DNA of 64,000 nucleotides, taken from Candidatus Omnitrophota bacterium (GTDB lineage Bacteria; Omnitrophota; Gorgyraeia; Gygaellales; Profunditerraquicolaceae). Location: the NCBI GenBank assembly GCA_042570405.1, contig JBHPGR010000002.1:5992-69991 (forward strand), read 5' to 3'. The notes beneath the pieces were generated by a model, which saw only the letters and a list, made by a program, of their open reading frames with translations, was not told the origin of the DNA and searched no databases. Below are positions 5,476 through 42,886 of the stretch, piece by piece (positions within the stretch are counted from its first letter, which is position 1; every line of letters begins with the position of its first letter). Position numbers and translations under genes: made by a program.

Positions 5476-5642
5476 TTAAATCCTAAATTCGAAATCCTAA
5501 TGGTTCGACTCCGCTCACCATTAGTACTGAGCGAAGCCGAAGTACTAAATTCTAAACAAATCCCAAATTCTAAATCCCAAACTTTAGAATTTAGAGCTTA
5601 GAATTTGTTTAGGATTTAGATATTAGGATTTAGAATTTAAAT
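5476..5642. repeat. AT-rich imperfect palindromic intergenic element, copy B (with a GC-rich insert)
   Basis: It shares an identical 37-mer, CTAAATTCTAAACAAATCCCAAATTCTAAATCCCAAA (5545-5581), with copy C (8688-8724). It also shares an identical 24-mer, GCTTAGAATTTGTTTAGGATTTAG (5596-5619), with copy C (8743-8766). Confidence 0.7.
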
Positions 5643-8667: not shown

Positions 8668-8788
8668 CAAATACTAAATACTAAATTCTAAATTCTAAAC
8701 AAATCCCAAATTCTAAATCCCAAATAATGTTTAGGATTTAGTGCTTAGAATTTGTTTAGGATTTAGTGCTTAGGATTTCGAATTTAAA
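8668..8788. repeat. AT-rich imperfect palindromic intergenic element, copy C
   Basis: The left arm (about 8670-8725) and right arm (about 8730-8785) pair imperfectly, roughly 3 of 4 positions by hand alignment, around a TAATG loop. It shares the 37-mer and 24-mer with copy B. Confidence 0.7.
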
Positions 8789-8793
8789 ATATT

Positions 8794-9522
8794 ATGTCCA
8801 GGCCCAGCAAGCAAAATCATTACAAAATCTACCTGAAGCAGATCGAGGCGATCTCTAAGATCGCAGACCTGATCTCATCGGGAATGTACCTCGAGGAGCT
8901 CCTGCGTTTGGTGGTGCAGGTGACTGCCGAGCTTATGAATTCCAAGATCTCCTCGCTGATGCTGCTTGACTCTGACGGTAAGGAGCTTGTAGTCAGGGCC
9001 ACGCAGTCGATCTCTGAGGAATACAATAAGAAACCCAACATATTATTAGGCGAAGGTATTGCCGGAAGGGTCGCAAGCGGGAAGAAACCGATCTGTGTGA
9101 TGGATATCCGGGAGGATGAACGTTACTTGAATTGTGATATCGCCAAGAAAGAAGGACTTTGTTCTCTGGCCAGCGTTCCTTTGGCTGTGAGGGGGAGGAT
9201 TATCGGCGTGCTTAACTGTTATACATCGCGCAGGCATAAGTTCAGCAAACCGGAATTAGATGTTTTGACTGCCCTTGCTAATCAGGCGGCAGTAGCGATT
9301 GAGAATGCGGAATTAGACATTAGGGCGCGCAGCGCCGAAGAAGCATTGACCACGCGCAAGCTTATAGAGCGGGCAAAGGAGATACTTGCGCAGGAGGCAA
9401 ATATCCTGCCTGCCCAGGCATACAGGCTGATCCAGAAGCAGAGCATGGATACCCGTAAGTCCATGCGCGAAGTTGCAGAAGCTATAATCCTGGCTAAAGA
9501 TATAAAAGGGAAAAGAGCATAA
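8794..9522 (+). CDS. GAF sensor domain + ANTAR RNA-binding antiterminator domain protein
   Basis: The GAF core reads LLGEGIAGRVASGKKP...SLASVPLAVRGRIIGVLNCY. The C-terminal ANTAR signature reads LTTRKLIERAKEILAQ...AQAYRLIQKQSMDTRKSMREVAEAI. Confidence 0.85.
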   Translation: MSRPSKQNHYKIYLKQIEAISKIADLISSGMYLEELLRLVVQVTAELMNSKISSLMLLDSDGKELVVRATQSISEEYNKKPNILLGEGIAGRVASGKKPICVMDIREDERYLNCDIAKKEGLCSLASVPLAVRGRIIGVLNCYTSRRHKFSKPELDVLTALANQAAVAIENAELDIRARSAEEALTTRKLIERAKEILAQEANILPAQAYRLIQKQSMDTRKSMREVAEAIILAKDIKGKRA

Positions 9523-9528
9523 TAGGGC

Positions 9529-9556
9529 TTGACAAATCCGCAAAATATTTTATATT
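9529..9556 (+). promoter_or_regulatory. sigma70-like promoter candidate for the nfnAB-gdhA leader
   Basis: TTGACA (9529-9534), a 16-nt spacer, then TATATT (9551-9556). Confidence 0.5.
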
Positions 9557-9619: not shown

Positions 9620-9665
9620 GGACAAAGGCGTCCACCAAGATAGAGCAGGGAGGGCGTCTTTTTTA
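9620..9665 (+). promoter_or_regulatory. leader attenuator: mini-hairpin GGAC-AAAGGC-GTCC overlapping an intrinsic terminator
   Basis: The mini-hairpin spans 9620-9633. The terminator arms AAAGGCGTCC (9624-9633) and GGGCGTCTTT (9652-9661) pair over 10 bp including 2 G-U, followed by a T-run to 9664. The two folds are mutually exclusive. Confidence 0.5.
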
Positions 9666-13294: not shown

Positions 13295-13313
13295 TCTAGT
13301 CTCGCGGATGTGA

Positions 13314-13347
13314 TTCAGGGGCACACTCATTGTGCCCCTGAATTTTT
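13314..13347 (+). terminator. Rho-independent terminator after gdhA
   Basis: TTCAGGGGCACA-CTCAT-TGTGCCCCTGAA forms a 12-bp perfect stem, followed by TTTTT. Confidence 0.8.
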
Positions 13348-13349
13348 AC

Positions 13350-13377
13350 TTGACAAAAAAAGAATCGGTGTTATACT
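13350..13377 (+). promoter_or_regulatory. sigma70-like promoter candidate for the amtB-glnK-glnA leader
   Basis: TTGACA (13350-13355), a 16-nt spacer, then TATACT (13372-13377). Confidence 0.5.
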
Positions 13378-13404
13378 TTAAGTAACTACAGTGATGTAGT
13401 TGAT

Positions 13405-13448
13405 GACGCTGAAGTCTTTCGGTGGTTGGATTGCCGGAGGACTTTTTT
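13405..13448 (+). promoter_or_regulatory. leader attenuator module 1 (mini-hairpin + terminator)
   Basis: The mini-hairpin GAC-GCTGAA-GTC (13405-13416) overlaps the 5' arm AGTCTTTCGG (13413-13422). That arm pairs with CCGGAGGACT (13434-13443) over 10 bp including 2 G-U, followed by TTTTT. Confidence 0.5.
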
Positions 13449-13453
13449 GTTGC

Positions 13454-13501
13454 AGGACGGCGAAGTCCTTTATCCGAATGGCCGGATAGAGGATTTTTTT
13501 T
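13454..13501 (+). promoter_or_regulatory. leader attenuator module 2 (mini-hairpin + terminator)
   Basis: The mini-hairpin AGGAC-GGCGAA-GTCCT (13454-13469) overlaps the 5' arm TCCTTTATCCG (13466-13476). That arm pairs with CGGATAGAGGA (13483-13493) over 11 bp. The hexaloop is AATGGC, followed by 8 T. Confidence 0.6.
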
Positions 13502-13507
13502 GAATTT

Positions 13508-13565
13508 GGACAGAGGCGTCCAATTTAACGCGCAAAGATCTGCGCATTAATTGGGCGCTTTTTTT
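13508..13565 (+). promoter_or_regulatory. leader attenuator module 3 (mini-hairpin + extended terminator)
   Basis: The mini-hairpin GGAC-AGAGGC-GTCC (13508-13521) overlaps the 5' arm AGAGGCGTCC (13512-13521). That arm pairs with GGGCGCTTTT (13553-13562). An inner GCGCA/TGCGC hairpin is present and the T-run extends to 13565. The motif is nearly identical to the one at 9620-9661. Confidence 0.5.
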
Positions 13566-13583
13566 GTGCCCGGGAAGGGAGAT

Positions 13584-14831
13584 ATGGAGACGATTATAAC
13601 AGGACTTGATACTTTGTGGGTGATGATCGCGGCATTTTTGGTGTTTATTATGCAGGCGGGTTTTGGCATGCTTGAGGCAGGATTAGTCAGGACAAAGAAT
13701 ACCTGCAATATTTTGATGAACAACTTTCTCGATTTCTGTATGGCATCGGTAGGGTTCTTTGTCTTTGGTTATGCGATCATGTTCGGCACCGGAAACGGTT
13801 TTATGGGTTTCAGCGGATGGGCGCTGATCAACGCCAATTCCGGAGGACATTTGCCATTGTATGCGGAGTGGTTGTTTCATGCGGTCTTTTGCGGGGCAGC
13901 AGCGACAATTGTAGCCGGAGGAGTTGCAGAAAGGATGAAGTTTAAGGTCTACCTTATATATTCTTTCCTGATCTCTGCCTTGATATATCCGATCGTAGGG
14001 CATTGGATATGGGGAGGGGGCTGGCTTTCGAAATTGGGTTTTGCGGATTTCGCCGGCTCTACGGTGGTGCATGCTGTCGGCGGCACCGCTGCTTTAGTGG
14101 GCACGATATGCCTGGGCCCCAGGATAGGCAAATTTAATAAAGACGGCTCAGCCAATGCGATTCAGGGTCATTCTATGGCCTTAGCTTCTCTGGGGACCCT
14201 GGTACTTTGGTTTGCCTGGTTTGGTTTTAATCCCGGTTCGACCTTAAGCGTCGGTGACGGAAGCAAAATCGCACATGTAGCGGTGACTACGAATATGGCG
14301 GCTGTCTCCGGAGCGCTGGTGGCGATGTTTTTTGCCTGGAGGAAGTTCGGCAAGCCGGATCTTACCATGACCATGAACGGAGCTTTGGCAGGATTAGTGG
14401 CGATAACCGCTCCCTGCGCCTTTGTCATGCCTTTAGAGGCGATGGCAATCGGAGCGATAGGCGGGATCATCGTAGTGCTGGGAACGGTATTTCTGGATAA
14501 AATGCATATTGACGATCCGGTGGGCGCTGTCCCGGTGCATGCAATGAACGGGATCTGGGGGACTTTAGCAATCGGAATCTTCGGGCACCAGTCATTAGGG
14601 CTGGCCAGGGAGGGACTATTGCACGGAGGAGGCTTTTCGCAATTAGGAGTGCAGGCTTTAGGCGTGGGATCAGCAGTCATATTTGTGCTGATTGCGATGT
14701 TTACAATCTTTAAGACGTTAGACAGGTTTGTGGGTTTAAGGGTTTCAAGAGAGGATGAATTAAAGGGCCTGGATATCAGCCAGCACGGGATGGAATCCTA
14801 CGCCGGATTTGAGATATTCACTACGCAATAA
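13584..14831 (+). CDS. amtB: ammonium transporter AmtB
   Basis: It is polytopic and has the Amt signature [13 protein letters not shown]. Downstream [15 protein letters not shown] is also present. The ATG at 13584 is preceded by GGGAAGGGAG. It is followed directly by a P-II gene. Confidence 0.93.
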
Positions 14832-14841
14832 GGAGGGGATG

Positions 14842-15192
14842 ATGAAACTTATAATCGCGCTGATACAGCCGCATAAACTTCCTGATGTAAAAAAGGAGCT
14901 CTTTGATACAGAGGTTTATAAGATGACGGTCTCAAACGCCCTGGGTTGCGGACAACAGAAGGGATACACCGAGACCTACCGTGGGGTTGTGCATGAGGTA
15001 AACCTGCTGAAAAAAGTCAGGCTTGAGATCGCGGTAAATGATAACTTTGTCAGGCCTACGATCGATGCGATCATCAAGGGTGCCCGTAACGGTTCCCAGG
15101 GCAGGATCGGTGACGGAAAGATATTTGTATTAGATCTGCCCGAATGTATCAGGATCAGGACAGGGGAGCGGGGAGGTGAAGCGATAGGATGA
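14842..15192 (+). CDS. glnK: P-II nitrogen regulatory protein GlnK
   Basis: It starts [17 protein letters not shown] and has a T-loop [14 protein letters not shown] and the C-terminal GDGKIFV motif. AGGAGG lies 5 nt upstream of the ATG at 14842. An alternative ATG is at 14839. Confidence 0.9.
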
Positions 15193-15248
15193 ACAAAAAG
15201 CTAAACAACAAGATCAGTCAACAGACTAAAACAAAAAAGGAGGAGAAG

Positions 15249-16580
15249 ATGGCAAAGAGGACGAAACAGGACATTATGAAGTTAGTAAAGGAAAATGATG
15301 TAAAGTTCATTAGGCTCTGGTTTACGGATCTTCTCGGCCAGGTAAAGAGCTTTGCGATTACTGATGGCGAATTAGAGGGGGCTCTTAGTAATGGTATGGG
15401 TTTTGACGGCTCATCGATCACCGGCTATCAGGACATCGAAGAGTCTGATATGATCGCCATGCCCGATCCGGACACATTCGTACTGCTCCCCTGGAGGCCG
15501 AAGGAGAAGGCGGTCGCCAGGATGATCTGCGATGTGCTTAATCCGGATAAGACGCCTTATGAAGGGGATCCGCGTTATGTACTCAAAAGGGCACTGGCCA
15601 GGGCAAAGAAGATGGGGTTTGACCATTACTATGTCGGCCCCGAGCTTGAATATTTTTATTTCAAGAACAGTGATTCGACCGAGATCCTGGATAAGGGAGG
15701 TTATTTTGATCTGACAACTTTAGATGTGGCAAGCGATCTTAGGCGTGAAACAGTGCTGGCGCTTGAACAGATGGGCATCCAGGTAGAGTATTCCCATCAT
15801 GAGGTCGCTCCTTCCCAGCACGAAGTAGATATGCGTTATAAGGATGCGCTGCAGATGGCTGACAGCGTGATCACCTACAGGGTGGCAGTCAAAGAGATCG
15901 CCAGCAAGTTAGGAGTTTATGCCACCTTTATGCCTAAGCCGATCTTTGGGCAAAACGGCTCGGGGATGCATACCCATCAGTCGCTGTTTAAGGGGGATAA
16001 GAATGCCTTCTTTGATGCAAAGTCCAATGATAATCTGTCGGCCACCGGGCATAACTATATCGCCGGACTCCTGAAGCACGCAAAGGAGATATGCTCCATC
16101 TTTGCCCAGACGACTAACTCTTACAAGAGGCTAGTCCCGGGTTATGAGGCGCCGGTTTACATCGCCTGGAGCCGCAGGAACCGAAGCGCCCTGATCCGTG
16201 TGCCGCAATATCATCCCGGACAGGAGAAGGCAACGCGTTGCGAGTTTAGGGCATGCGATCCAGTATGCAATCCATATCTAACCTTTGCGGCGATGCTTCA
16301 CGCCGGCCTTGAAGGAATAGAGAAGGGGTATAAAGCTCCCGCCCCTATGGAGCAGAACCTTTATCATCTGACAGAAAGCGAGAGAAAGGCCAAGGGTATT
16401 CAGACCCTGCCGGACAGCCTGGGAAAAGCTATTTCGATCACCGAAGACAGCGCGCTGGTGAAAAAGATCCTGGGTGAGCACATCTTTCCCAGGTTCGTTG
16501 AGTTAAAACAGAAGGAGTGGAATGAATACAGGATCCAGGTTCCTAAGTATGAACTGGATAAGTATCTTTCGACCACTTAA
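15249..16580 (+). CDS. glnA: glutamine synthetase type I (443-aa form), copy 2
   Basis: It has the same motif set as copy 1 (FDGSSITGY, GPELEYF, HHEVAPSQHEVDMRY, NGSGMHTHQS, NSYKRLVPGYEAP). The ATG at 15249 is preceded by AAGGAGGAG. The track's start at 15189 adds a non-conserved 20-aa extension. Confidence 0.93.
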   Translation: MAKRTKQDIMKLVKENDVKFIRLWFTDLLGQVKSFAITDGELEGALSNGMGFDGSSITGYQDIEESDMIAMPDPDTFVLLPWRPKEKAVARMICDVLNPDKTPYEGDPRYVLKRALARAKKMGFDHYYVGPELEYFYFKNSDSTEILDKGGYFDLTTLDVASDLRRETVLALEQMGIQVEYSHHEVAPSQHEVDMRYKDALQMADSVITYRVAVKEIASKLGVYATFMPKPIFGQNGSGMHTHQSLFKGDKNAFFDAKSNDNLSATGHNYIAGLLKHAKEICSIFAQTTNSYKRLVPGYEAPVYIAWSRRNRSALIRVPQYHPGQEKATRCEFRACDPVCNPYLTFAAMLHAGLEGIEKGYKAPAPMEQNLYHLTESERKAKGIQTLPDSLGKAISITEDSALVKKILGEHIFPRFVELKQKEWNEYRIQVPKYELDKYLSTT

Positions 16581-16590
16581 GGCGATAGGT

Positions 16591-16634
16591 TATGTGCGTC
16601 CTTCATTGAAAGGAGGACGCACATAAAATTTTTT
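16591..16634 (+). terminator. Rho-independent terminator after glnA copy 2
   Basis: TATGTGCGTCCT ... AGGACGCACATA forms a 12-bp perfect stem, followed by AAATTTTTT. Confidence 0.75.
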
Positions 16635-16685
16635 GTGCAGGGGAGTCTAAATTTTGGGCAGGATTAGCGTTTAATTTAAACAGAG

Positions 16686-16952
16686 ATGAACAAAGAGATT
16701 TATACACAAGAAAAAAAAGAAAGACTCCAGGAGCTGGTTGCCCAGATCGATGAGGAGTTTATCCGGAATAACCGGACACGCCTCTACAAGTTTTTTGTTG
16801 AGGCGCTGGAGAAGCCGTTGATCGAGAGGATCCTGGAGAAGACTGATGGCAATCAGCTTAGGGCAGCCAGGATATTAGGCATCAACCGCAACACCCTAAG
16901 AAGTAAGATAAAGAAGTTCGCAATCAACACCGCGAGGTGGAAGATAGGATGA
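16686..16952 (+). CDS. Fis-family small DNA-binding protein (HTH_8 type)
   Basis: 88 aa. LYKFFVEALEKPLIERILEKTDGNQLRAARILGINRNTLRSKIKKF aligns with the Fis/NtrC C-terminal HTH. Its stop overlaps the gltB ATG (ATGA at 16949-16952). Confidence 0.7.
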   Translation: MNKEIYTQEKKERLQELVAQIDEEFIRNNRTRLYKFFVEALEKPLIERILEKTDGNQLRAARILGINRNTLRSKIKKFAINTARWKIG

Positions 16953-22895: not shown

Positions 22896-25472
22896 ATGAT
22901 TAGCACAGGGATTAAAGGATTGGATAACGTGATCACGGGCCTAAGGGCGGGGGATAACGTAGTCTGGCAGATAGATGATATAAAAGACTATATTGACCTT
23001 GTAAAGCCGTTTGTCAAAGAGGCGCTGAAGCAGAAGAAGAGGGTGGTCTATATGAGGTTTGCCTCGCATAAAGAGGTGCTTAAACCCTTAAAGCGGATCA
23101 AGCGCTATGAGCTTAATGCCCATGCCGGCTTCGAATCCTTTGCCACGAAAGTAAACCGGATTATCACGCAGGAGGGGGAGGGAGCCTATTATGTGTTTGA
23201 CTGCCTTTCAGAGCTGCTTTCAGCCTGGGCAAATGACTTGATGATCGGTAACTTTTTTATGGTCACCTGTCCCTATCTTTACGAGCTGAAGACCCTGACC
23301 TACTTTTCCATATTACGCAACAATCATTCCTTTAAGTCTGTTGCGCGCATCCGGGAGACCACGCAGTTACTGATGGATGTGTACCACTGTGAAAGGAACT
23401 TCTATATTCACCCCTTAAAGGTCTGGAACCGTTATTCTTCCACGATGTTCCTTCCTCATCAAAGAAAAAAGGAAAACTTTATTCCGATTGTAGACAGCGT
23501 AAATGCGGCAAAGTTCTTATCATACATCCGCGAGCACGGAGCAGAGAGTGCCAAGCGCAACCTCGATTACTGGGACCGTTTATTCTTAGAGGCAGAGGAG
23601 CTGCTAAAAAAAGGTGCTCCCAAAAAGAAGATTAAGGCGATGGTTAAGAAGCTTTGCAGCATCATGGTGACCAAGAATAAAAAGATCATGGATCTGGCAG
23701 TACGTAATTTTTCGCTTGATGAGCTGGTTGATATGAAGGCCAGGCTGATCGGTACGGGTTTTATCGGAGGCAAGACTGTAGGGATGCTTCTGGCCCGAAA
23801 GATGCTCGGTAAAAACAGGAACCTTGACTGGCAAAGGCTCTCTGAACCGCACGATTCGTTTTTTGTCGGCTCGGATATATTCTATTCTTACATTGTCCAG
23901 AACCGCTGGTGGAAGCTGCGCATGCAGCAGAAGACAGAGGGAGACTATTTTAAGGCCGCTCAGATCCTGAGGGAGAAGATGCTTTACGGGGTCTTTCCGG
24001 AGGAGATCATGGAGCACTTTCAGCAGATCATCGAGTATTTCGGCTCATCACCGATCATCATCCGCTCAAGTTCTCTTCTTGAGGATGGTTTCGGCAATGC
24101 CTTTGCCGGTAAATACGAAAGCATATTCCTGGCAAATCAGGGCACTCCGGAGGAGAGGTATATCCGTTTTGCCGAGGCGGTGAAAAGGATTTACGCTAGC
24201 ACGATGAGCGAGGATGCCCTGGCTTACAGGAAGCAGAGGGGGCTGGATAAATTAGATGAACAGATGGCGCTTTTGGTGCAGCGGGTCTCAGGGGCGCACC
24301 ACAAGAATTATTTCTTTCCTGATCTGGCCGGAGTGGGAGTCTCCTATAATACTTATGTCTGGAACGAGAGCATGGATTCCAAGGCGGGGATGCTCAGGCT
24401 TGTCTTTGGCCTGGGCACTAGGGCGGTCAACCGCGTGGAAGGAGATTATCCGCGGATGGTCGCGCTTGACGAGCCCCTACGCAGGCCCTATGCCGAGAAG
24501 GATGACCTGAGAAAATATTCCCAGCATGAGGCGGACCTGATCAATACCAAGGAGAATGCGCTTAGGACCGTATCGCTTGAGAGGATAATCAGCGAGAAGG
24601 CCTACAGCGGCATCGAGCGCCTTGCGGTAAGGGACGATGAAGCAATGCGGATGATGGAGCGGGTCAGAGGCAATAAAGAGTATTGGATTCTGACATTGGA
24701 TAAGCTCTTTTCAGGTAACGGACTGGCCGGATCATTCAGTAAGATCCTTAAGGCGCTTGAGCAGAGCTACCGCTATCCGATCGAAATAGAATTTACGGTA
24801 AATTTCACCGAGGATAACGCCTATAAGATAAACCTGCTGCAGTGCAGGCCGCTGCAGACGCGCGGATTAGGCCGTAAGGTCTACATACCGGATCAGGTCA
24901 AAAGCGGCGATAAATTCTTTGAATCACGCGGATATTTCCTGGGCGGGAACATATCGCAGAAGATCGACTGGATAATCTATGTCGATCCTCAAAAGTATAG
25001 CGAACTCGCTTTATCGGATAAGCATGAGATCGCCCGCACAGTGGGAAAATTAAACCGGATGATCATGAGCAGGGAAGAATTGCCTACTCTCTTGATGGGG
25101 CCGGGCAGGTGGGGTACCACAACGCCTTCTTTAGGCGTGCCGGTCAAATTTGCCGAGATCAATAATGTAGCAGTGCTTGCCGAGGTGGCTTTTTCAGCGG
25201 GGAATCTGGCGCCGGAACTATCATTCGGGACGCATTTCTTCCAGGACCTGGTGGAGACTAATATTTTCTATACTGCGCTTTTCCCCGAAAAGAAGGAGGT
25301 CTTATTAAACGGGCAAAAGTTGAGTGAGTTTAACGATCTGTTCGCAAAACTTGTGCCGGAGTCGTTAAGGTATAAGGGGCTGATCAGTGTTTATGATGTC
25401 AGTCAAAAGGGGATGAGGGTCATGTCAGATGTTGTATCCCAGAGGGTAGTCTGTTTTTCCAAAAATGATTGA
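22896..25472 (+). CDS. PEP/pyruvate-binding (PPDK_N ATP-grasp) domain protein with a degenerate RecA/KaiC-like N-terminal domain
   Basis: 858 aa. PPDK_N motifs are GFIGGKTVGMLLA, IIRSSSLLEDGFGNAFAGKYES, MALLVQRV and IEIEFTV. The N-terminus STGIKGLDNVITGLRAGDNVVW resembles the KaiC/RadA lead-in, but no GxxGxGKT follows. No GG.TSHAAI swivel-His motif was found. Confidence 0.6.
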   Translation: MISTGIKGLDNVITGLRAGDNVVWQIDDIKDYIDLVKPFVKEALKQKKRVVYMRFASHKEVLKPLKRIKRYELNAHAGFESFATKVNRIITQEGEGAYYVFDCLSELLSAWANDLMIGNFFMVTCPYLYELKTLTYFSILRNNHSFKSVARIRETTQLLMDVYHCERNFYIHPLKVWNRYSSTMFLPHQRKKENFIPIVDSVNAAKFLSYIREHGAESAKRNLDYWDRLFLEAEELLKKGAPKKKIKAMVKKLCSIMVTKNKKIMDLAVRNFSLDELVDMKARLIGTGFIGGKTVGMLLARKMLGKNRNLDWQRLSEPHDSFFVGSDIFYSYIVQNRWWKLRMQQKTEGDYFKAAQILREKMLYGVFPEEIMEHFQQIIEYFGSSPIIIRSSSLLEDGFGNAFAGKYESIFLANQGTPEERYIRFAEAVKRIYASTMSEDALAYRKQRGLDKLDEQMALLVQRVSGAHHKNYFFPDLAGVGVSYNTYVWNESMDSKAGMLRLVFGLGTRAVNRVEGDYPRMVALDEPLRRPYAEKDDLRKYSQHEADLINTKENALRTVSLERIISEKAYSGIERLAVRDDEAMRMMERVRGNKEYWILTLDKLFSGNGLAGSFSKILKALEQSYRYPIEIEFTVNFTEDNAYKINLLQCRPLQTRGLGRKVYIPDQVKSGDKFFESRGYFLGGNISQKIDWIIYVDPQKYSELALSDKHEIARTVGKLNRMIMSREELPTLLMGPGRWGTTTPSLGVPVKFAEINNVAVLAEVAFSAGNLAPELSFGTHFFQDLVETNIFYTALFPEKKEVLLNGQKLSEFNDLFAKLVPESLRYKGLISVYDVSQKGMRVMSDVVSQRVVCFSKND

Positions 25473-25497
25473 CTTAAGGATTAGCTTATGTTATATT
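25469..25497 (+). promoter_or_regulatory. sigma70-like promoter candidate for the pyrG leader
   Basis: TTGACT (25469-25474, overlapping the upstream stop codon), a 17-nt spacer, then TATATT (25492-25497). Confidence 0.45.
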
Positions 25498-25537
25498 TTA
25501 CAGTGATAGTTCGAAGCAGCACTATTAATAAACAATG

Positions 25538-28269
<2,732 letters not shown>

Positions 28270-28292
<23 letters not shown>

Positions 28293-29931
28293 AAAAATAT
28301 TGGTCATCGGTTCAGGCCCGATCATCATCGGGCAGGCCTGCGAGTTTGATTACTCAGGCAGCCAGGCCTGCAAGGTCTTAAAGCAGGAGGGGTATGAAGT
28401 GATCGTAGTCAACTCCAATCCTGCTACGATAATGACTGACCCTGAGATGGCGGATAAGACCTATATCGAGCCCATAAATGTAAGCCTGATCGAGAAGGTG
28501 ATCGCTAAGGAAAAACCAGATGCCTTGCTTCCCACCCTAGGCGGCCAGACTGCATTAAATACTGCCGTAGAATTGGAGAAGCAGGGAATACTCAAGAAGT
28601 ATGATCTCGAGACCATAGGCGCAAATATTACTGCTATCAAAAAGGGTGAAGACCGGGAATTATTCAAGGAATCAATGCTTAAGATCGGTCTGGAGGTGCC
28701 TAAGAGCGATAAGGCCTATAGCCTTAAAGAGGCGATGAAGGTCGCCCAAGAGATAGGATTTCCTCTGATCATCAGACCAAGTTTTACCTTAGGTGGTACA
28801 GGCGGAAGTGTTGCCTATAACATTGAGGATTTTAAGGATTTGGCCCGGCGTGGACTTGAGGCAAGCATGATCAGTGAGATCCTGATCGAGCAATCAGTCT
28901 TGGGCTGGAAGGAGTTTGAGCTTGAGGTGATGCGCGATTTAAAGGATAACGTAGTGATCATCTGCTCGATCGAGAACTTTGACCCTATGGGGATCCATAC
29001 CGGAGATAGCATCACTGTGGCGCCTGCACAGACGCTTACTGATAAAGAGTATCAGAGGATGCGGGATGCGGCGATCGCCTGTATCAGGGAGATCGGGGTT
29101 GAAACCGGGGGGTCTAACATTCAGTTTGCAGTCAATCCTGAAGATGGTAGGATGGTGATTATCGAAATGAATCCCAGGGTATCACGGAGCTCTGCGCTCG
29201 CCTCTAAGGCAACTGGATTTCCCATCGCCAAGATTGCAGCCAAATTAGCTGTCGGCTATACGCTTGATGAGATCCCCAACGATATCACTAAGGAGACGCC
29301 CGCCTGCTTTGAGCCAGCGATCGATTACTGTGTAGTCAAGATACCGCGCTTTGTCTTTGAGAAATTTTCCACTCTTGAGCCGACTCTGACAGTGCAGATG
29401 AAATCAGTAGGCGAGGTGATGGCGATCGGAAGGACTTTTAAGGAGGCGCTCCAGAAGGGCTTGCGTTCTCTTGAAATCGGCAAATATGGCTTAGAGAGCG
29501 TGTTATTTAGAGATTATGCCCTTAAACCAAAGATTAATAATCGCAATATGGAATTGCTTTACAGGAAATTAAGGATCGCCAATCCGGAAAGGTTATTTTA
29601 TATAGCCGATGCCTTAAGGGTAGGGATTGATCTGGATGAGATCTCTGCTTTGACCAAGATCGACAAATGGTTTTTATATAATATTAAGGAGATTATTGAC
29701 CTTGAGAGGCAGATGATTAAGTCCAAAAAAAATATTAAGCCTGAACTTTTGCGTAAGGCAAAGGAGTTCGGCTTTAGCGATAGAATTTTAGGGAAGCTTT
29801 TAGATAAGAAGGAGGGGGAGGTTTTTAAGTTAAGGAAGTCGCTGGGGATCAAGCCTGATTTTAAGCTGGTTGATACCTGCGCCGCCGAATTTCAGGCCTT
29901 CACCCCTTACTATTATTCGACATATAGTTAG
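28270..29931 (+). CDS. carB: carbamoyl-phosphate synthase large subunit, N-terminal half only (carboxyphosphate + oligomerisation domains)
   Basis: 553 aa with a GTG start overlapping carA. It is collinear with residues 1 to about 553 of the full-length CarB at 39681. It ends cleanly at ...[10 protein letters not shown], and no CPS-like sequence follows in any frame. Confidence 0.85.
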
Positions 29932-30022
29932 GAAATTATGGAGCAATCCCCTTAGAGCTGAAGTAATATATTTGGCGGGGACAGTCCCGTCTTAAGAAAA
30001 GCTGAATTCTTAGGAGGAAGCT

Positions 30023-30271
30023 ATGTTAAGTGCGCAAATCTATATTACTATAAAAAAGACAGTGGCTGACCCGCAAGGCCTAACCATTAAGCATGCCTTA
30101 GAATCATTGGGCTATAAAGATTTAGCGGACGTACGCCTCGGCAAGCTGGTGGTCGTTAAATTAAACTTTAATGATAAGAAAAGAGCAGAACAGCAAATTA
30201 AGCAGATGTGCAAGAAGCTATTGGTCAACCCGATCATAGAAGATTATGATTTTAAGATAAAAGATGAGTAG
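30023..30271 (+). CDS. purS: phosphoribosylformylglycinamidine synthase subunit PurS
   Basis: It is 82 aa, matches the PurS size, has the pattern VADPQG..I...L..LGY, and lies directly upstream of purQ-purL. Confidence 0.85.
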
Positions 30272-30965
30272 AATAAAATTCGGAATCGTGGTTTTCCCCG
30301 GATCTAATTGCGATCAGGACTGTTTTTATATAATAAAGAACGTTTTAAGGCAGTCCGTTAAGTATCTCTGGCATCAGGACACTGATTTAAGCCGCCTTGA
30401 CTGCGTTGTGTTGCCAGGAGGATTTAGCTACGGGGACTACCTACGCACTGGCGCCATCGCCAGATTTTCTCCGATAATGAAGGCCATCGCCGGTTTTGCC
30501 AAAAAAGGCAAAACGGTCATAGGGATTTGTAATGGTTTTCAGGTGCTCCTGGAGGCAGGGCTTCTGCCGGGATCGATGTTAAGAAACAGGGGCCTACATT
30601 TTATCTGTCGGCAGGTTTATATCAAGGCAGAGAACAATCAGACCAGATTCACCAATCTTTATAATGCGGGACAAATTTTAAGAATACCTATCGCGCATAA
30701 CGAAGGCAATTTTTATATTCCCGCAGCCGGACTCAGAGAGTTAAAAGGGAATAATCAAATAGTATTCCGTTATTGTTCTGCCGAAGGGGAAGCCAACGGA
30801 AGATTTAATCCCAATGGCGCATTGGATAATATTGCGGGCATAATTAACAAAAAAGGCAATGTCTTAGGGGTGATGCCGCACCCTGAAAGGAGTTCAGAAA
30901 GAGGGCTCGGCAGTCAAGATGGTTATCTTATATTTAAGTCGATAGCCGATTGGTTAAAAACTTAA
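30264..30965 (+). CDS. purQ: phosphoribosylformylglycinamidine synthase glutaminase subunit PurQ
   Basis: 233 aa. It starts [12 protein letters not shown] and has [16 protein letters not shown] and MPHPER. Confidence 0.93.
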
Positions 30966-30970
30966 AAGAT

Positions 30971-33178
30971 ATGGTGAAACCGGATATATATCATTCCTTA
31001 GGTTTAAGCAATCAGGAATACAAGTCTATATTAAAGATTCTTAAGCGTAGGCCCACCAATACAGAGCTAGCGATGTTTTCCGTAGAGTGGTCTGAGCATT
31101 GCGGATACCCGCGTTCCCGTAGGTGGCTGGGGATTTTGCCTAAGACCGGTAAATACAAGACGTTGATAGGCGAAGATTCCGGAGGGATCATTCTTGATGG
31201 CTTGGCCATAATTTTTAAGATGGAGAGCCATAATCATCCCTCGCAGGTTGAACCGAAGCAGGGAGCGGCTACCGGAGTGGGAGGGATTATAAGGGATATA
31301 TTTACCGCCGGAGCCAGACCGATAGCACTATTAGATTCTTTACGTTTTGGGCCGTTGAATCAAGCGTATAATAAATACCTGTTTATGGGGGTGGTCGATG
31401 GAATCCAGTTTTACGGAAATTGCGTAGGCGTTCCCACAGTCGGCGGTGAGATCTACTTTGATTCAAGCTACACGGGAAATTGCCTGGTCAATGCGATGTG
31501 TATCGGCATTGCTAAGAAGGATAAGTTAGTCCGGGCACGTGCAAGCGGCTTAGGAAATTCGATTATCTATGTGGGTTCGAGCACCGGACGGGACGGCATC
31601 GGCGGATGCAGCATCCTTGCCTCGCGTGAATTTAAAGAAGGCGAAGAAAAGAGGCCGGCAGTGCAGATAGGAGATCCTTTCACAGAAAAGTGTTTGATCG
31701 AGTCGACTTTAGAGGCGATCAAGACAGGATATATAGTAGGGATTAAAGATATGGGGGCAGCAGGGCTTACTTGCTGCACCAGTGAAATGGCGTATGCGGG
31801 AAATTCCGGCATAGACATAGAATTACAGGCAATACCAAGAAGGGAAGAAAATATGCAACCCTGGGAATTAATGATGTCTGAGTCTCAGGAAAGGATGCTT
31901 ATCTGTGTAAAGAAGGGGAAGGAAGAGCAAATAAAGAAAATATTTTTAAAATGGGGACTGAATGCTTCTATTGTCGGTAAAGTGACCAAGGACGGTTTAG
32001 TCACGATTAGAGACAGCGGACAGATAGTCGCTCAGGTCCGGGCGCGCTCTTTAGCTCGGGCGCCAATATATGATATGCCTTACAGAAAACCGCGGCGTCT
32101 TAATAAACTAAATAAAATTGCGCTAAGCCAGATTCCAGAACCGAAAGATCTCAAACGGGCCTTATTAACGCTTATGGTTTCGCCATCCATCGCCAATAAG
32201 GCCTGGGTCTATGAACAGTACGACCATATGGTACAGACTAATACCGTAGTCTTACCCGGTTCGGACGCAGCGGTGCTCAGGCTAAAAGGGACAAATAAAG
32301 CAATAGCCGCTACCACCGATTGTAATAGCCGTTATTGTTTGCTTAATCCTTACCGGGGAGCACAGATCGCCGTAGCCGAGGCAGCGAGGAACTTGGTTTG
32401 TGCCGGCGCTCATCCTGCAGGGGTTAGCGATTGTCTTAATTTTGGCAATCCGGAAAAACCGGAAAGCTTCTGGTACTTTAAAAATTGCGTGAAAGGAATT
32501 CGGGATGCTTGCAAGTCATTTAATATTGCTGTGGTCAGCGGAAACGTCTCTTTCTATAATGAAAGCCCCAAGTCTGCTATAAATTCAACTCCTACTATTG
32601 GCATGATCGGTATTATCAATGACATAAAGAAATCCTGTACGCAGAATTTCAAACAGGATGGCGATGCGGTTATTCTTTTGGGTTATTGTAAAGAGGAACT
32701 GGGCGCAAGCGAGTATTTGAAAGAGGTCCATAATTTAACCAGAGGCGATGTTCCGCGATTGGATTTAGTATTAGAAAAAGCAGTTCAAGAAGCAACCCTT
32801 AAAGCGATAGAGAGGGGGGTTGTAAATTCAGCACACGATTGTTCCGAAGGAGGCTTAGCAGTAGCTCTGGCTGAATGTTGTATTTCAAATAGAGATAAGA
32901 TGATCGGGGCTAATATAAACAATTTAAATTATGAGATGAGAGCGGATACTTTGCTTTTTGGCGAGTCACAGTCTAGGATTATTCTTTCCTGTAATCAGGA
33001 TTCGGTGGGGAAAGTTAAAAAAATCGCCCAAGAATTTAAGGCACCTTTCTCAATCATCGGTAAGACTGGTGGCAATGCCCTCAGGATTATAAATAGTATA
33101 GAAGAGTTGATCTATTTACCGTTGGAAGTTTTATCTGAAGAATGGCACGGGTCTTTAAAGAGAAAAATCGAAGAGTAA
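30971..33178 (+). CDS. purL: phosphoribosylformylglycinamidine synthase subunit PurL
   Basis: It has the small-PurL pattern LGLSNQEYKSI...EWSEHCGY...ESHNHPS. The ATG at 30971 lies just after the purQ stop. The track uses a TTG at 30950. Confidence 0.93.
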   Translation: MVKPDIYHSLGLSNQEYKSILKILKRRPTNTELAMFSVEWSEHCGYPRSRRWLGILPKTGKYKTLIGEDSGGIILDGLAIIFKMESHNHPSQVEPKQGAATGVGGIIRDIFTAGARPIALLDSLRFGPLNQAYNKYLFMGVVDGIQFYGNCVGVPTVGGEIYFDSSYTGNCLVNAMCIGIAKKDKLVRARASGLGNSIIYVGSSTGRDGIGGCSILASREFKEGEEKRPAVQIGDPFTEKCLIESTLEAIKTGYIVGIKDMGAAGLTCCTSEMAYAGNSGIDIELQAIPRREENMQPWELMMSESQERMLICVKKGKEEQIKKIFLKWGLNASIVGKVTKDGLVTIRDSGQIVAQVRARSLARAPIYDMPYRKPRRLNKLNKIALSQIPEPKDLKRALLTLMVSPSIANKAWVYEQYDHMVQTNTVVLPGSDAAVLRLKGTNKAIAATTDCNSRYCLLNPYRGAQIAVAEAARNLVCAGAHPAGVSDCLNFGNPEKPESFWYFKNCVKGIRDACKSFNIAVVSGNVSFYNESPKSAINSTPTIGMIGIINDIKKSCTQNFKQDGDAVILLGYCKEELGASEYLKEVHNLTRGDVPRLDLVLEKAVQEATLKAIERGVVNSAHDCSEGGLAVALAECCISNRDKMIGANINNLNYEMRADTLLFGESQSRIILSCNQDSVGKVKKIAQEFKAPFSIIGKTGGNALRIINSIEELIYLPLEVLSEEWHGSLKRKIEE

Positions 33179-33181
33179 TAT

Positions 33182-34549
33182 ATGTGCGGGATATTCGGAG
33201 TTTATCCACATAAGGATGCAGCCAGACTTGCCTATTTAGGGCTTTATGCACTCCAGCATCGCGGAGAGGAAGCCAGCGGCATTGTCGCGCGTAACGGCAA
33301 TAAGGTTTATTTGCATAAGGCTCCCGGATTAGTCAGTGACGTTTTTAATGAAAAGATAATCCGCAGCCTGCGCGGAGAGATGGCGGTCGGCCACGTCAGA
33401 TACTCGACCACCGGCAGCAGCAACGCCAAGAATACCCAGCCGTTTTACGTAAAGACTAAGATCGGCGATGTGGCGATCGCCCATAACGGTAATCTTACTA
33501 ATAGCCTTGCGCTGCGCAGGAGATTACAGGATAACGGAGCTCTTTTCCAGACTACGATGGATTCGGAGATCATCGCCCATCTTTTGGCGCACAGTGCGAA
33601 GAAAACCAATCGGGAGGCGATGATTGACTCCCTGGCGCAGTTGGAGGGGGCATATTCGCTGGTGATTATGTTGCAGGATACACTGATCGGGGCAAGGGAT
33701 AGTTTTGGTTGGCGGCCGCTCTGCTTAGGGAAATTAGACGGGTCATATATTTTAGCAAGTGAGACCTGCGCCCTCGATCTGATCGGAGCGGAATATGTCA
33801 GGGATGTCCATCCGGGTGAGGTAGTATTTATAGATAAGGATAAACTTACATCAGCCAGGATTTCAGATAGTAAAAAGCGCTCCTTTTGCATATTCGAATA
33901 TATTTATTTTGCCCGTCCGGACAGCAATATCTTTGACCATAATGTATATTTGGCGCGTAAGGCGCTTGGCGAACAGTTAGCGATCGAATATCCTATCGAG
34001 GCTGACCTGGTGATACCGATACCGGATTCGGGAAATTTTGCCGCATTAGGCTTCGCGGAGAAATCAAGGATCCCATTTGATTTTGGGATGATCCGTAACC
34101 ATTATATAGGCAGGACTTTTATTCAACCCAGCCAGCTGGTCAGAGATTTCCGGGTCAAGGTGAAATTGAATCCCTTAAGGGAAGTGTTAAAAGGTAAGCG
34201 GATAATAGTAGTCGAAGATTCCATTGTGCGCGGGACGACCAGCCGGGCGCGAGTGCGGGCCTTGCGCGAGGCAGGGGCTAAAGAGGTACACATGCGCATC
34301 AGCTGTCCGCCCTTACGATACCCCTGTTTTTTTGGGATCGATTTTCCTACGCAAAAGGAATTAGTCGCTTCCAGCCATGAAATAGAATGGATCCGCGATT
34401 TTATCAGCGCCGACAGCCTTAAATATCTGAGCCTTGAAGGCATGCTTAAGGCGATGCCGATGGACAGGGAGAATTTCTGCACTGCCTGTTTTACGGGAGA
34501 ATACCCGATAAAGTTTCCCCGTCAACTCACCAAAACAATCCTCGAGTAA
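33182..34549 (+). CDS. purF: amidophosphoribosyltransferase
   Basis: It has the N-terminal nucleophile MCGIFGV and the PRPP motif VVEDSIVRGTT. Confidence 0.95.
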   Translation: MCGIFGVYPHKDAARLAYLGLYALQHRGEEASGIVARNGNKVYLHKAPGLVSDVFNEKIIRSLRGEMAVGHVRYSTTGSSNAKNTQPFYVKTKIGDVAIAHNGNLTNSLALRRRLQDNGALFQTTMDSEIIAHLLAHSAKKTNREAMIDSLAQLEGAYSLVIMLQDTLIGARDSFGWRPLCLGKLDGSYILASETCALDLIGAEYVRDVHPGEVVFIDKDKLTSARISDSKKRSFCIFEYIYFARPDSNIFDHNVYLARKALGEQLAIEYPIEADLVIPIPDSGNFAALGFAEKSRIPFDFGMIRNHYIGRTFIQPSQLVRDFRVKVKLNPLREVLKGKRIIVVEDSIVRGTTSRARVRALREAGAKEVHMRISCPPLRYPCFFGIDFPTQKELVASSHEIEWIRDFISADSLKYLSLEGMLKAMPMDRENFCTACFTGEYPIKFPRQLTKTILE

Positions 34550-34628
34550 TCCGGAATTATTTTTAATAGTAGTTTTTTTCTTTCGTGTTATAATATGAAC
34601 TTGTGTGTGACCGAAGGAGGAGGATAAG

Positions 34629-35282
34629 ATGGTAAAGATCTCTAAAAAGATAGGCTGGGAGATAGCAAAGAATACGCTTTTGCCGGTAATCGTGCTTTTT
34701 TCCTTTATCGGCGCTTATATAGCTTACCGGATCAAAATCCAGCCTTTTATCCCTGAACGGGTCCATTTGGATATCAGGAAGTATATAAGCACACTCCTGG
34801 TCGTCTGTGTAGCATTTATTCTGCACAGGATCGCAAGGGCGGTGGTGAACTGGTATAAGGAGAACGTCGCTGCAAAGACCGTCTCTCAGCTTGATGATGA
34901 CCTGATCCCTATCGTCAGCAGGACGCTAAAGATAGTGATCTGGGTGATAGCGTTATTAGTGATCCTTCCTTTTTATGGGGTAAATATCAGTGCCCTGATC
35001 ACTGCCTTGGGCGTAGGTTCTCTGGCTATAGCGCTGGCTGCCCAGGATACGATCGCCAATATAATAGCGGGATTTATGATCATGGTCGATCGTCCCTTTC
35101 GGATGGGGGACAGGATCAAGCTTGTGACAGGGGAGGTTGTCAAGGTATTGAATATCGGCGTCAGAAGGACGGAGTTTTTGGCTGAGGACGGATCGATCGT
35201 CATCCTCCCTAACGTTGACTTGAGCAGGAATAAGATCGTAAACTACACCTACGGGGAAGAGAGAAAAAGAAATGGCCTTTAA
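34629..35282 (+). CDS. mechanosensitive channel (MscS) family protein, short form
   Basis: 217 aa. It has 3-4 TM helices, the pore helix LGVGSLAIALAAQDTIANIIAGFMIMVDRPFRMGD, and a beta domain. It appears to lack the usual C-terminal alpha/beta domain. Confidence 0.65.
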   Translation: MVKISKKIGWEIAKNTLLPVIVLFSFIGAYIAYRIKIQPFIPERVHLDIRKYISTLLVVCVAFILHRIARAVVNWYKENVAAKTVSQLDDDLIPIVSRTLKIVIWVIALLVILPFYGVNISALITALGVGSLAIALAAQDTIANIIAGFMIMVDRPFRMGDRIKLVTGEVVKVLNIGVRRTEFLAEDGSIVILPNVDLSRNKIVNYTYGEERKRNGL

Positions 35283-39505: not shown

Positions 39506-39533
39506 TTGACATAATTAAAAAATCTAGTATACT
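39506..39533 (+). promoter_or_regulatory. sigma70-like promoter candidate for the carB leader
   Basis: TTGACA (39506-39511), a 16-nt spacer, then TATACT (39528-39533). Confidence 0.45.
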
Positions 39534-39572
39534 TATAGGTAGTCCAATAGCGTACTACTAAACAAAACAATG

Positions 39573-39615
39573 GCGTTTGGAGGCTGAGATTATCGGTGCT
39601 TCAAGCGCTTTTTTT
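39573..39615 (+). promoter_or_regulatory. carB leader attenuator (terminator hairpin + T-run), conserved with the pyrG leader
   Basis: GCGTTTGGA (39573-39581) pairs with TTCAAGCGC (39600-39608) over 9 bp, followed by 7 T. It is preceded by AACAATGGCG, as at pyrG. Confidence 0.55.
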
Positions 39616-39680
39616 GTAAGTTTTACCAGGGATTTATTATTTAATCAACAGCAGTATAAAACTTCTCGCAGGAGGAGAGC

Positions 39681-42600: not shown

Positions 42601-42878
42601 AAAACGGGGTCAAGAATAACCAGATCAAAAAGTTGTACGAGGGAAGGCCGAATATTACCGATGCGATCAAGAACAAAGATGTCCAGCTGATTGTAAATAC
42701 GCCGATCGGTAGAGGTAGTAAGTATGATGACAGCTACATACGGATGATGGCGATCCAGCATAAGCTGCCTTACATTACTTCAATCGCTGCTGCAGAGGCG
42801 AGCATCGAGGGGATCGAGGCGGCAAAGAAGAATAAGATCACTGCTACCTCTTTACAGGATTATTACAAGAAGCTATAA
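39681..42878 (+). CDS. carB: carbamoyl-phosphate synthase large subunit (full length)
   Basis: 1065 aa. It has both ATP-grasp halves and the C-terminal MGS-like allosteric domain. GGAGGAG precedes the ATG. Confidence 0.95.
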   Translation: MPRRKDIKKVLIIGSGPIIIGQACEFDYSGTQACKALKEEGYEVVLVNSNPATIMTDPGMAHKTYIEPLNEESLERIIEKERPDALLPNLGGQTGLNLSSSLHKSGVLKKYGIKVIGVQTDAIERGEDRLAFKETMKKLNIPVPKSDVSHSVEEAQKIAEEIGYPVVLRPAYTMGGTGGGIAYNVEELRVIVNRGLNVSIVHQVLVEEAVIGWEELELEVVRDTKDQKITVCFIENIDAMGVHTGDSFCAAPMLTVPKPLQKKMQDLSYKIVDAIGVVGGTNIQFAHNLKTDRLVVIEINPRTSRSSALASKATGFPIARISTKLAAGLTMDEIPYWKEGTLEKYEPSGDYVVIKFARWAFEKFPGAKDILGTQMRAVGEVMSIGKTYKEAFQKAIRSLEIGRYGLGVAKFKALADEVLKGRIATPSSERIFLMYEALRRGASVEELYRVTHIGRWFIQEMKDLVDFEEEISKNKWKDLSDQKLAKAKELGFSDRYLAGLFDVKEAEVRKRRIKIGKAGRFDAVPVSGVENAAYYYSTYIKEDKVPVSPNKKVLILGGGPNRIGQGIEFDYTCVHAAFALRDEGYESIMVNCNPETVSTDYDTSNKLYFEPLTVEDVLTIWEKEKPMGAIVQFGGQTPLNIAQELKDNGVKILGTSPESIRLAEDREYFRKRMIELKIPQPESGAARSMEEALKIAKKIGYPLMVRPSFVLGGRGMQVVYDEQMLRKYTEEAIEITPEYPMLIDKFLEQAVETEVDALADGKDCFVASIMEHIELAGVHSGDSACAIPTRTIKEEHLKTIEKYTAQIAKELKVVGLMNIQYAICDNKVYILEANPRASRTVPLVSKITNIAIARIATQVMLGKKLKDFPELKKYKLPYVGVKEAVFPFNMFPEVDPVLGPEMRATGEVMGIGETFGMAFYKAQEAAGVKLPLEGSVLLTVAEKDKQKLLPIAKRLEKAGFKILATEGTGRFLSENGVKNNQIKKLYEGRPNITDAIKNKDVQLIVNTPIGRGSKYDDSYIRMMAIQHKLPYITSIAAAEASIEGIEAAKKNKITATSLQDYYKKL

Positions 42879-42886
42879 TAGGTGCA

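Follow-up and report, generated by a model that had tools for sequence, protein, structure and literature searches.

How does an uncultured bacterium of the Candidatus Omnitrophota gate the transcription of its ammonium transporter operon? The question is raised by a 64-kb stretch of DNA (the window, by which we mean the whole stretch that was analyzed), in which amtB-glnK-glnA is preceded by a 200-nt leader carrying several predicted hairpins. An earlier note on this DNA had read the leader as three serial, protein-dependent attenuators served by a GAF-ANTAR protein encoded nearby, and this reading is supported by the match to a known RNA family, by the residues of the regulator, by its apparent regulon and by related leaders. 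We conclude that the leader is probably a series of three transcription attenuators of the ANTAR type. Its features are as follows.

13350..13377, + strand: sigma-70-type promoter TTGACA-16-TATACT with an extended -10 TG, 11/12 matches
13384..13401, + strand: P1 hairpin AACUAC-AGUGAU-GUAGUU, 6 bp with a hexaloop, -5.9 kcal/mol, at the predicted transcript 5' end
13405..13416, + strand: putative antiterminator hairpin of module 1 (P2), GAC-GCUGAA-GUC, -2.7 kcal/mol, with a C:G closing pair and G at loop position 4 (G4)
13411..13448, + strand: terminator 1 (stem 13411-13445, U-run 13443-13448, T6), -18.3 kcal/mol, z -4.9
13454..13469, + strand: putative antiterminator hairpin of module 2, AGGAC-GGCGAA-GUCCU, -7.0 kcal/mol, C:G closing pair, G4
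13462..13501, + strand: terminator 2 (stem 13462-13497, U-run 13494-13501, T8), -20.6 kcal/mol, z -5.4
13506..13523, + strand: putative antiterminator hairpin of module 3, UUGGAC-AGAGGC-GUCCAA, -7.3 kcal/mol, C:G closing pair, G4
13513..13565, + strand: terminator 3 (stem 13513-13561, U-run 13559-13565, T7), -25.9 kcal/mol, z -5.4

The promoter, described in the earlier note as following the gdhA terminator, is near-consensus and does sit directly past that terminator, and the three mini-hairpins and the three overlapping terminators ending at 13448, 13501 and 13565 are all present as well. The P1 hairpin, 3 nt upstream of the module 1 hairpin, had been overlooked. All three modules share one geometry, in that the 5' arm of the terminator begins within the loop or the 3' arm of the mini-hairpin; the 5' arm of terminator 1 includes the end of the loop and the 3' arm of the module 1 hairpin. 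The terminators are strong when compared with shuffled sequences, from which their z-scores were calculated, and 13385-13590, folded to minimum free energy, forms a 5' hairpin and the three terminators (-78.2 kcal/mol, z -5.4). With 12 to 25 comparable terminators on the + strand of the window as input, the Poisson probability of three within 185 nt is about 1e-5. Modules 1 and 2 are alike (z 4.8, a value reached by 0/500 shuffles), and neither resembles module 3. The amtB start codon lies 18 nt past the U-run of terminator 3, a gap into which a further promoter would not fit, so amtB is transcribed only by way of all three terminators.

The ANTAR substrate was defined as a pair of hexaloop hairpins, with stems of 3 bp or more, that have A at loop position 1 (A1) and G4 and are joined by a variable linker, a terminator overlapping the second hairpin (Ramesh 2012, PMC3369931). 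The minimal motif has since been redefined as one hexaloop; EutV requires both hairpins, joined by a short linker, G4 stacks on its Tyr164, and A1 makes no protein contact (Walshe 2022, PMC8934654). Four hairpins of the amtB leader (13384-13401, 13405-13416, 13454-13469 and 13506-13523) have a hexaloop on a stem of at least 3 bp, and all four have both the C:G closing pair and the G4 that are invariant in 14 published seed hairpins. Loop position 1 is A in two of them (AGUGAU, AGAGGC) and G in the other two (GCUGAA, GGCGAA), as it is in one published seed loop (GAUGAA). Loop identities recur as well. The AGUGAU loop of the leader P1 is that of the Enterococcus faecalis eutA P1 seed, while AAUGGC is the P1 loop of nasF, eutG and eutP and AAAGGC the P2 loop of nasF and eutA; the nasF P2 seed, GGAU-AAAGGC-GUCC, has almost the sequence of the hairpins of module 3 and of the nfnA leader, described below. 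A P1-linker-P2 pair is found in module 1 only, with a 3-nt linker; modules 2 and 3 lack a suitable hairpin upstream.

A covariance model, R1, was built from 7 published eut seeds (Enterococcus and Listeria) only, the Klebsiella oxytoca nasF seed being left out as its MAFFT alignment was out of register, and the whole window was searched with filters off (128 kb). The best match was module 3 (13506-13545, 24.6 bits, E 3e-4), followed by the carB leader (39540-39578, 22.2 bits, E 0.0013), P1 with module 1 (13384-13418, 15.0 bits, E 0.08), the pyrG leader (25530-25565, 14.5 bits) and the nfnA leader (10.8 bits). The four best matches are all nitrogen-gene leaders with terminators, and the leaders that structure had already pointed out are recovered by the model; module 2 was absent from the matches of this search. 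Over 657 kb of loci, 9 of the 10 best R1 matches fell on the strand of amtB, the majority in loci of Omnitrophota type.

The top-ranked alignment takes 13530-13545 as its P2, probably fortuitously, because there is no C:G closure at that place and the terminator tops of orthologues are not hexaloops. The two hexaloops at terminator tops, 13471-13488 (loop AAUGGC, terminator 2, closing pair G:C) and 13530-13545 (loop AAGAUC, terminator 3), both lack the C:G closure. The earlier note had singled out AGAGGC in module 3 and AATGGC in the terminator 2 loop; both are present as described, and the second is probably no binding site, because it lacks the invariant C:G closure and its position is not a hexaloop in orthologues. 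We considered grouping the six hexaloops into three dual-hexaloop pairs, with the terminator tops as second sites or as a shared P1, and rejected the terminator tops as binding sites on the same two grounds. Counted loosely, dual hexaloops in the window are no more frequent than in shuffles (33 versus 30.7), and they are informative only in combination with short linkers, terminators and loop identity.

An unbiased scan of 164 sequences (163 loci and the window, about 1 Mb), with 671 terminators, covered any hairpin overlapping a terminator 5' arm. Among stems of at least 4 bp, hexaloops were about twice as frequent as loops of 5 or 7 nt (124 versus 62 and 80). The commonest loops in the scan were AAAGGC (13), AAAGAC (5), AGAGGC (4) and AAUGGC (3). 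The C:G closure goes with G4, being present in 55/83 hairpins with G4 and in 18/86 without it. Hairpins with both A1 and G4 were closed by C:G in 40 of 49 cases, and 38 of those 40 lay on the amtB strand.

A candidate for the protein that would read these hairpins is encoded 3.9 kb upstream of the amtB leader, by the sole ANTAR gene in the window:

8794..9522, + strand: gene for a one-component GAF-ANTAR regulator, presumed antiterminator (Pfam GAF_2, 1.1e-22; ANTAR, PF03861, 5.4e-18)

The gene is part of a conserved block, AsnC-aminotransferase-glnA-GAF-ANTAR, and its orthologues, about 80% identical, are found in more than 100 Omnitrophota protein clusters. Its GAF domain is nearest by sequence to the GAF domains of Nlh1/NifA-type proteins and PtsP, matches from which the ligand is not identifiable. 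The GAF domains of PtsP and NifA sense glutamine and/or 2-oxoglutarate, and a nitrogen ligand is, by this likeness, a lead. The residues Arg142, Lys149, Tyr164 and Met172 of EutV, which contact the hexaloop (Walshe 2022, PMC8934654), are all kept in the GAF-ANTAR protein when it is aligned to PDB entry 6wsh (chain numbering offset 2). NasR and PAL are the only one-component ANTAR proteins named by Goodson 2020 (PMC7496416), according to which no GAF-ANTAR protein has been characterized.

The amtB leader has company in the window, where three further leaders carry a single module of the same kind:

9620..9664, + strand: nfnA-like/gdhA leader module, GGAC-AAAGGC-GUCC ... GGGCGTCTTTTTT, with an overlapping terminator (R1 10.8 bits; z 6.2 to module 3)
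25529..25579, + strand: pyrG-carA-purQLF leader module, UAAAC-AAUGGC-GUUUG, with an overlapping terminator (R1 14.5 bits)
39540..39615, + strand: carB leader module, AAAC-AAUGGC-GUUU (39565-39615), with an overlapping terminator and a P1-like hairpin upstream (R1 22.2 bits)

The near-identity of module 3 to the nfnA leader module had been pointed out in the earlier note, and the similarity score bears it out; the pyrG and carB modules had escaped attention. The promoters of the nfnA, pyrG and carB leaders (9529-9556, 25469-25497 and 39506-39533) are near-consensus and as good as that of amtB. The single attenuator before pyrG stands ahead of pyrG, carA, an N-terminal half of carB (553 amino acids), purQ, purL and purF (25529-34549), a run in which all products are glutamine amidotransferases or partners of these. 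The other stands ahead of a full-length carB and a DUF1846 gene (39540-44413).

An exact look-up of the AmtB protein found no match, and its relatives, source contig apart, are at most 84% identical in genome and metagenome scans and at most 87% in a large protein search. Since no close relative carries the three-module leader, direct covariation on that leader is impossible. The operon amtB-glnK-glnA-HTH_8-gltB is nonetheless conserved in Omnitrophota (loci L164, L166, L168 and L169), and the leaders of L166, L168, L169 and L170 have two modules each. The first of these consists of a P1 (e.g., GACAC-GUUGCA-GUGUC), a P2 (AAC-AAAGGC-GUU) and a terminator; the second and last consists of GGAC-NNAGRC-GUCC and a terminator, has no P1, and is orthologous to module 3 of the window. 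Module 3 also aligns to the amtB-proximal module of an Omnitrophota-type relative, L081, with z 11.7. The four-pair core GGAC-NNAGRC-GUCC is nearly invariant in 6 orthologous leaders, with one change of A-U to G-U. In the same six, the basal helix of terminator 3 is 89.7% paired, with 2 compensatory pairs, compared with 27-51% when the register is slid, and the interior of the terminator differs in sequence. The P1 hairpin shows compensatory changes at 4/6 pairs in 12 related leaders, with G4 invariant; its covariation is 0.39 versus 0.20 in shuffles (1/500) for these 12 hairpins, which were picked by eye as hairpins. Comparison of relatives' leaders, which the earlier note had suggested as a check, yields compensatory pairs in P1 and in the base of terminator 3.

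Elsewhere, a GAF-ANTAR gene lies directly upstream of multi-module amtB leaders in five loci (L077, L119, L010, L168 and L169). One of them, L119, an unrelated contig whose AmtB is 56% identical, has three tandem modules behind a TTGACA-17-TATACT promoter; the amtB leader of L105 has two. Loops of the form NNNGAA, like those of modules 1 and 2, are common in these GAF-ANTAR-linked leaders (L105, L119) and in published seeds. Within 900 nt upstream, 33 of 181 amtB copies have at least one module, and 3 of the 181 have three modules, L081 included, though a GerE-like gene intervenes there. Because modules 1 and 2 are alike and unlike module 3, and orthologues have two modules, the third module of the window looks like a local duplication added to an ancestral two-module leader.

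Several relatives vary this plan. An open reading frame (ORF) of about 170 amino acids, similar to GerE and sigma region 4, lies between the first attenuators and the amtB-proximal one in L081 (270-778), L077 (2173-2695), L164 (2235-2780), L165 (2331-2843) and L167 (1878-2390); the window has no such gene, and its attenuators are joined in one leader. At L081 75-113, L165 2180-2215 and L166 2413-2447 the hairpin over the first terminator carries no hexaloop; its loop is 8 nt long and conserved, in the forms GAAC-AAUGUGGC-GUUC, GAAC-AAAGCGGC-GUUC and GAAC-AAAGGAGC-GUUC. Relatives labelled Planctomycetota (L012, L013, L014, L015, L017 and L018) have no attenuators and instead a sigma-54-type promoter, TGGCAC-N5-TTGC, about 150-250 nt before amtB; amtB would therefore be controlled at initiation in one lineage and after initiation in another.

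How might the leader work? A constitutive sigma-70 promoter would start transcription near 13384. The default state would be off, because the terminators are thermodynamically dominant (-18 to -26 kcal/mol, versus -2.7, -7.0 and -7.3 kcal/mol for the hairpins): polymerase would meet three intrinsic terminators in turn and stop at one of them, giving short RNAs of about 65, 118 and 182 nt. Each mini-hairpin would be transcribed ahead of the 3' arm of its terminator and would use the first bases of the 5' arm. Under induction, a dimer of the GAF-ANTAR protein would bind the mini-hairpins, at module 1 also by way of the upstream P1. A hairpin so held would block the first 5-9 basal pairs of the terminator, the remaining stem would not be adjacent to the U-run, and transcription would proceed. 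All three decisions would have to agree, so that basal read-through would equal three leak rates multiplied together, and induction by the active regulator would be steeper than at the single-module leaders of nfnA-gdhA, pyrG and carB. Module 1 has the weakest hairpin, of 3 bp, yet the only canonical P1, at 3 nt, which fits the cooperative or successive binding proposed for EutV. Nitrogen status, as 2-oxoglutarate, glutamine or a P-II partner, is the presumed input of the GAF domain, and the regulator is more likely to be active in nitrogen limitation than in sufficiency. From these features we infer protein binding, the identity and direction of the signal and a multiplicative response; that the response is steep, as the earlier note had proposed, is a reasonable inference.

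Several points weigh against this scheme. The case for the leader is built from sequence and computation. The best AmtB relatives, at 84-87% identity, have two-module leaders, and the choice by eye of the hairpins in the P1 covariation set is a selection bias. The loops of modules 1 and 2 start with G, not with the consensus A, and R1 passed over module 2. In module 1 the hairpin is just 3 bp long, and modules 2 and 3 have no convincing P1, while EutV needs both hairpins (PMC8934654). The regulon combines amtB and glnA, genes that nitrogen limitation usually induces, with gdhA and enzymes that consume glutamine, and the sign of the signal is ambiguous for this reason.

Of the alternatives, the one that survives best, although it too is unlikely, holds that only some of the modules respond to the regulator, module 2 being a recent duplicate of module 1 that acts as a constitutive leaky terminator or is decaying, which would leave a switch of one or two steps. 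Two-module leaders in orthologues would agree with this, as would the mutual similarity of modules 1 and 2 and, in module 2, the lack of a P1, the G that begins its loop GGCGAA and its absence from the R1 matches. However, module 2 retains a 5-bp hairpin with C:G closure and G4 placed exactly over the 5' arm of its terminator, its NNNGAA loop is of the kind that recurs in other GAF-ANTAR-linked leaders and published seeds, and a constitutive terminator of -20.6 kcal/mol with U8 would nearly silence the operon.

It is less probable again that the hairpins are read by another factor, whether an ANTAR protein (e.g., a response regulator) encoded elsewhere or separate proteins for the GNNGAA and ANAGGC loops. 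The genome is seen over 64 kb only, the ANTAR proteins known to regulate nitrogen genes are response regulators, and the loops do fall into two classes (GCUGAA and GGCGAA versus AGAGGC, AAAGGC and AAUGGC). Both classes, though, occur within single published regulons, 8794-9522 is the only ANTAR gene in the window, and in five other loci a GAF-ANTAR gene stands immediately upstream of a multi-module amtB leader.

That there is no regulation at all, the terminators being a constitutive damper or insulator and the mini-hairpins arising by chance from A-rich sequence before GC-rich stems, seems very improbable. By chance alone, a 3-bp hairpin in a given register is no rarity, and the loose dual-hexaloop count equals the shuffled expectation. 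Against this, hexaloop, G4 and C:G closure co-occur far above background, orthologues keep the hairpin core unchanged but not the terminator interior, the sites are recovered by a model made from published seeds, and three strong constitutive terminators would shut off an amtB that has no other promoter.

A riboswitch, a PyrR-type attenuator or a leader-peptide attenuator in place of an ANTAR target can be all but dismissed: the pyrimidine genes pyrG and carAB carry a similar module and Rfam gives a weak PyrR match (RF00515) at 13372-13501, but that match scores 26.8 bits (E 0.078), half of its gathering threshold of 54, with the binding-hairpin columns unpaired, no family of Rfam 15, glutamine riboswitch and T-box included, reaches its gathering threshold anywhere in the leaders, a module of about 50 nt is too small for an aptamer, and the leader ORFs, of 25-42 amino acids, have neither a Shine-Dalgarno sequence nor runs of regulatory codons.

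One of the closest known parallels is the GnfK/GnfR system of Geobacter sulfurreducens, where intrinsic terminators ahead of nitrogen genes are overcome by an ANTAR protein. GnfR binds a GGC-AANGGC-GCC motif and antiterminates at nifH, and both the conserved motif and the termination signals recur at glnK and amtB (Ueki & Lovley 2010, PMC2995071). The GnfR element CAGGCAANGGCGCC, a GGC-AANGGC-GCC hexaloop over a terminator with no P1 described, has the same shape as GGAC-AGAGGC-GUCC of module 3, and modules 2 and 3 resemble the GnfR site in their longer hairpins and lack of a P1. The differences are that GnfR is a phosphorylated response regulator, that its promoters depend on RpoN/GnfM and that one terminator is described per leader, whereas the window has a one-component GAF-ANTAR protein, sigma-70-like promoters and three stacked terminators.

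The likeness to EutV/EutW of E. faecalis lies in the P1 and P2 hexaloops with G4 and C:G closure and in a terminator that competes with the downstream hairpin (PMC3369931, PMC8934654), in the AGUGAU loop identical to that of eutA P1, and in the conserved RNA-contact residues of the ANTAR domain. The eut operon also has four terminators under ANTAR control, though each lies in an intergenic region of its own and not in a shared leader. EutV depends on the hairpin pair, while modules 2 and 3 offer a single hairpin each, and the eut sensor is a histidine kinase with an adenosylcobalamin riboswitch/EutX, in place of a GAF domain.

Predicted Firmicute regulons provide a published tandem arrangement. 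ANTAR matches with overlapping terminators have been listed before amtB/P-II, glnA, gltB, asparagine synthase and NAD synthetase (Ramesh 2012, Table S2, PMC3369931), gene sets similar to the regulon of the window with its gdhA, glutamine amidotransferases, amtB and glnA. The same table gives 13 attenuators in six transcription units of D. acetoxidans, with two matches 148 nt apart (34402-34448 and 34596-34642) before one amtB-P-II unit, and two matches before one urea operon of D. carboxydivorans (Table S2, PMC3369931). These Desulfotomaculum and other Firmicute cases differ in having two attenuators in tandem and not three, response regulators, and another phylum, and they were tabulated without analysis.

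NasR at nasF in Klebsiella and AmiR at amiE in Pseudomonas likewise antiterminate through ANTAR domains, and NasR is a one-component sensor-ANTAR protein; they differ in using a NIT domain or an AmiC partner as sensor, in having a single attenuator and in serving nitrate- or amide-use genes. Tandem riboswitches and tandem T-boxes (e.g., Welz & Breaker 2007) are serial, independent attenuators, by which the off state becomes tighter and the response more like a switch. Their sensor is the RNA itself or a tRNA, and in the window it would be a protein on small hairpins.

In our literature searches we met no explicit discussion of tandem ANTAR attenuators, nor of ANTAR in Omnitrophota. The earlier note had implied that the arrangement was new for amtB-glnK; ANTAR control of amtB and glnK was in fact known from Geobacter, and an amtB with two matches stands in Table S2 (PMC3369931), while three in one leader are new. 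What is already known is ANTAR control of nitrogen-gene leaders, established experimentally in Geobacter and widely predicted in Firmicutes; what is new is three copies in one leader, mostly single-hairpin modules, a GAF-type one-component regulator, and the phylum.

The leader lies within a nitrogen-assimilation supercluster that makes up the gene set of the window. An AsnC regulator, an aminotransferase, glnA, the GAF-ANTAR gene, an nfnAB-like pair and gdhA are followed by amtB, glnK, a second glnA, an 88-amino-acid HTH_8 ORF and gltBD, and further downstream by pyrG-carA-carB'-purQLF and then the second carB. The parts next to the leader are:

13312..13349, + strand: gdhA terminator closing the upstream operon (hairpin 13312-13344), a 14-bp stem and then a T-run
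13584..16580, + strand: regulated operon amtB-glnK-glnA, with a terminator after glnA at about 16590-16636
13584-14831, + strand: amtB (Pfam Ammonium_transp, 3e-129)
14809-15192, + strand: glnK (Pfam P-II, 1.6e-25)
15189-16580, + strand: second glnA (Pfam Gln-synt_C, 4.6e-129)

AmtB of the window has 415 amino acids and lacks the N-terminal extension, similar to a signal peptide, of many of its closest homologues (445-454 amino acids; L001-L022); both length classes are present among Omnitrophota. The HTH_8 ORF, which has only this C-terminal domain of Fis/NtrC, is kept at 66-88 amino acids between glnA and gltB across Omnitrophota (window 16686-16952; L164 6134-6334; L166 5939-6205; L168 6002-6244; L169 5759-5995). 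An imperfect inverted repeat, long and AT-rich, is present in two copies that belong to one sequence family, at 5534-5630 and 8669-8785 (…AAATTCTAAACAAATCCCAAATTCTAAATCCCAAA / TTTAGGATTTAG…), with arms of 48-56 nt that are 75-77% complementary; the copies flank the AsnC-aminotransferase-glnA operon on both sides and could be a terminator, a repetitive extragenic palindromic (REP)-like element or a miniature inverted-repeat transposable element (MITE). At 54307-54640 there is a tRNA gene with anticodon CAU, not called by ARAGORN, which is split inside the anticodon loop by a group I intron (54330-54585; Rfam RF00028, 92.5 bits), with both exon halves readable at its flanks.

The locus reveals no new mechanism. 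It does point to an uncharacterized class of ANTAR proteins, GAF-ANTAR, whose RNA targets are mapped by sequence. A broader view, which we offer tentatively and regard as somewhat doubtful, is that this protein, conserved at about 80% and co-transcribed with glnA, is the master nitrogen regulator of Omnitrophota, acting wholly after initiation, and that the number of modules per leader sets thresholds and steepness. The leaders of nfnAB-gdhA, pyrG-carA-purQLF and carB would then have one module each and that of amtB two in most lineages but three in the window and L119, and module number would evolve fast by local duplication. If this were true, it would be the first well-defined ligand-to-RNA GAF-ANTAR system and a natural test of multiplicative attenuation. 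The natural series of one, two and three attenuators under one regulator could test multiplicative, switch-like control and could serve as a set of tunable parts. For the organisms themselves, the finding suggests how uncultured Omnitrophota may control ammonium uptake and glutamine-dependent biosynthesis: with constitutive promoters, protein-dependent attenuators and one small GAF-ANTAR sensor.

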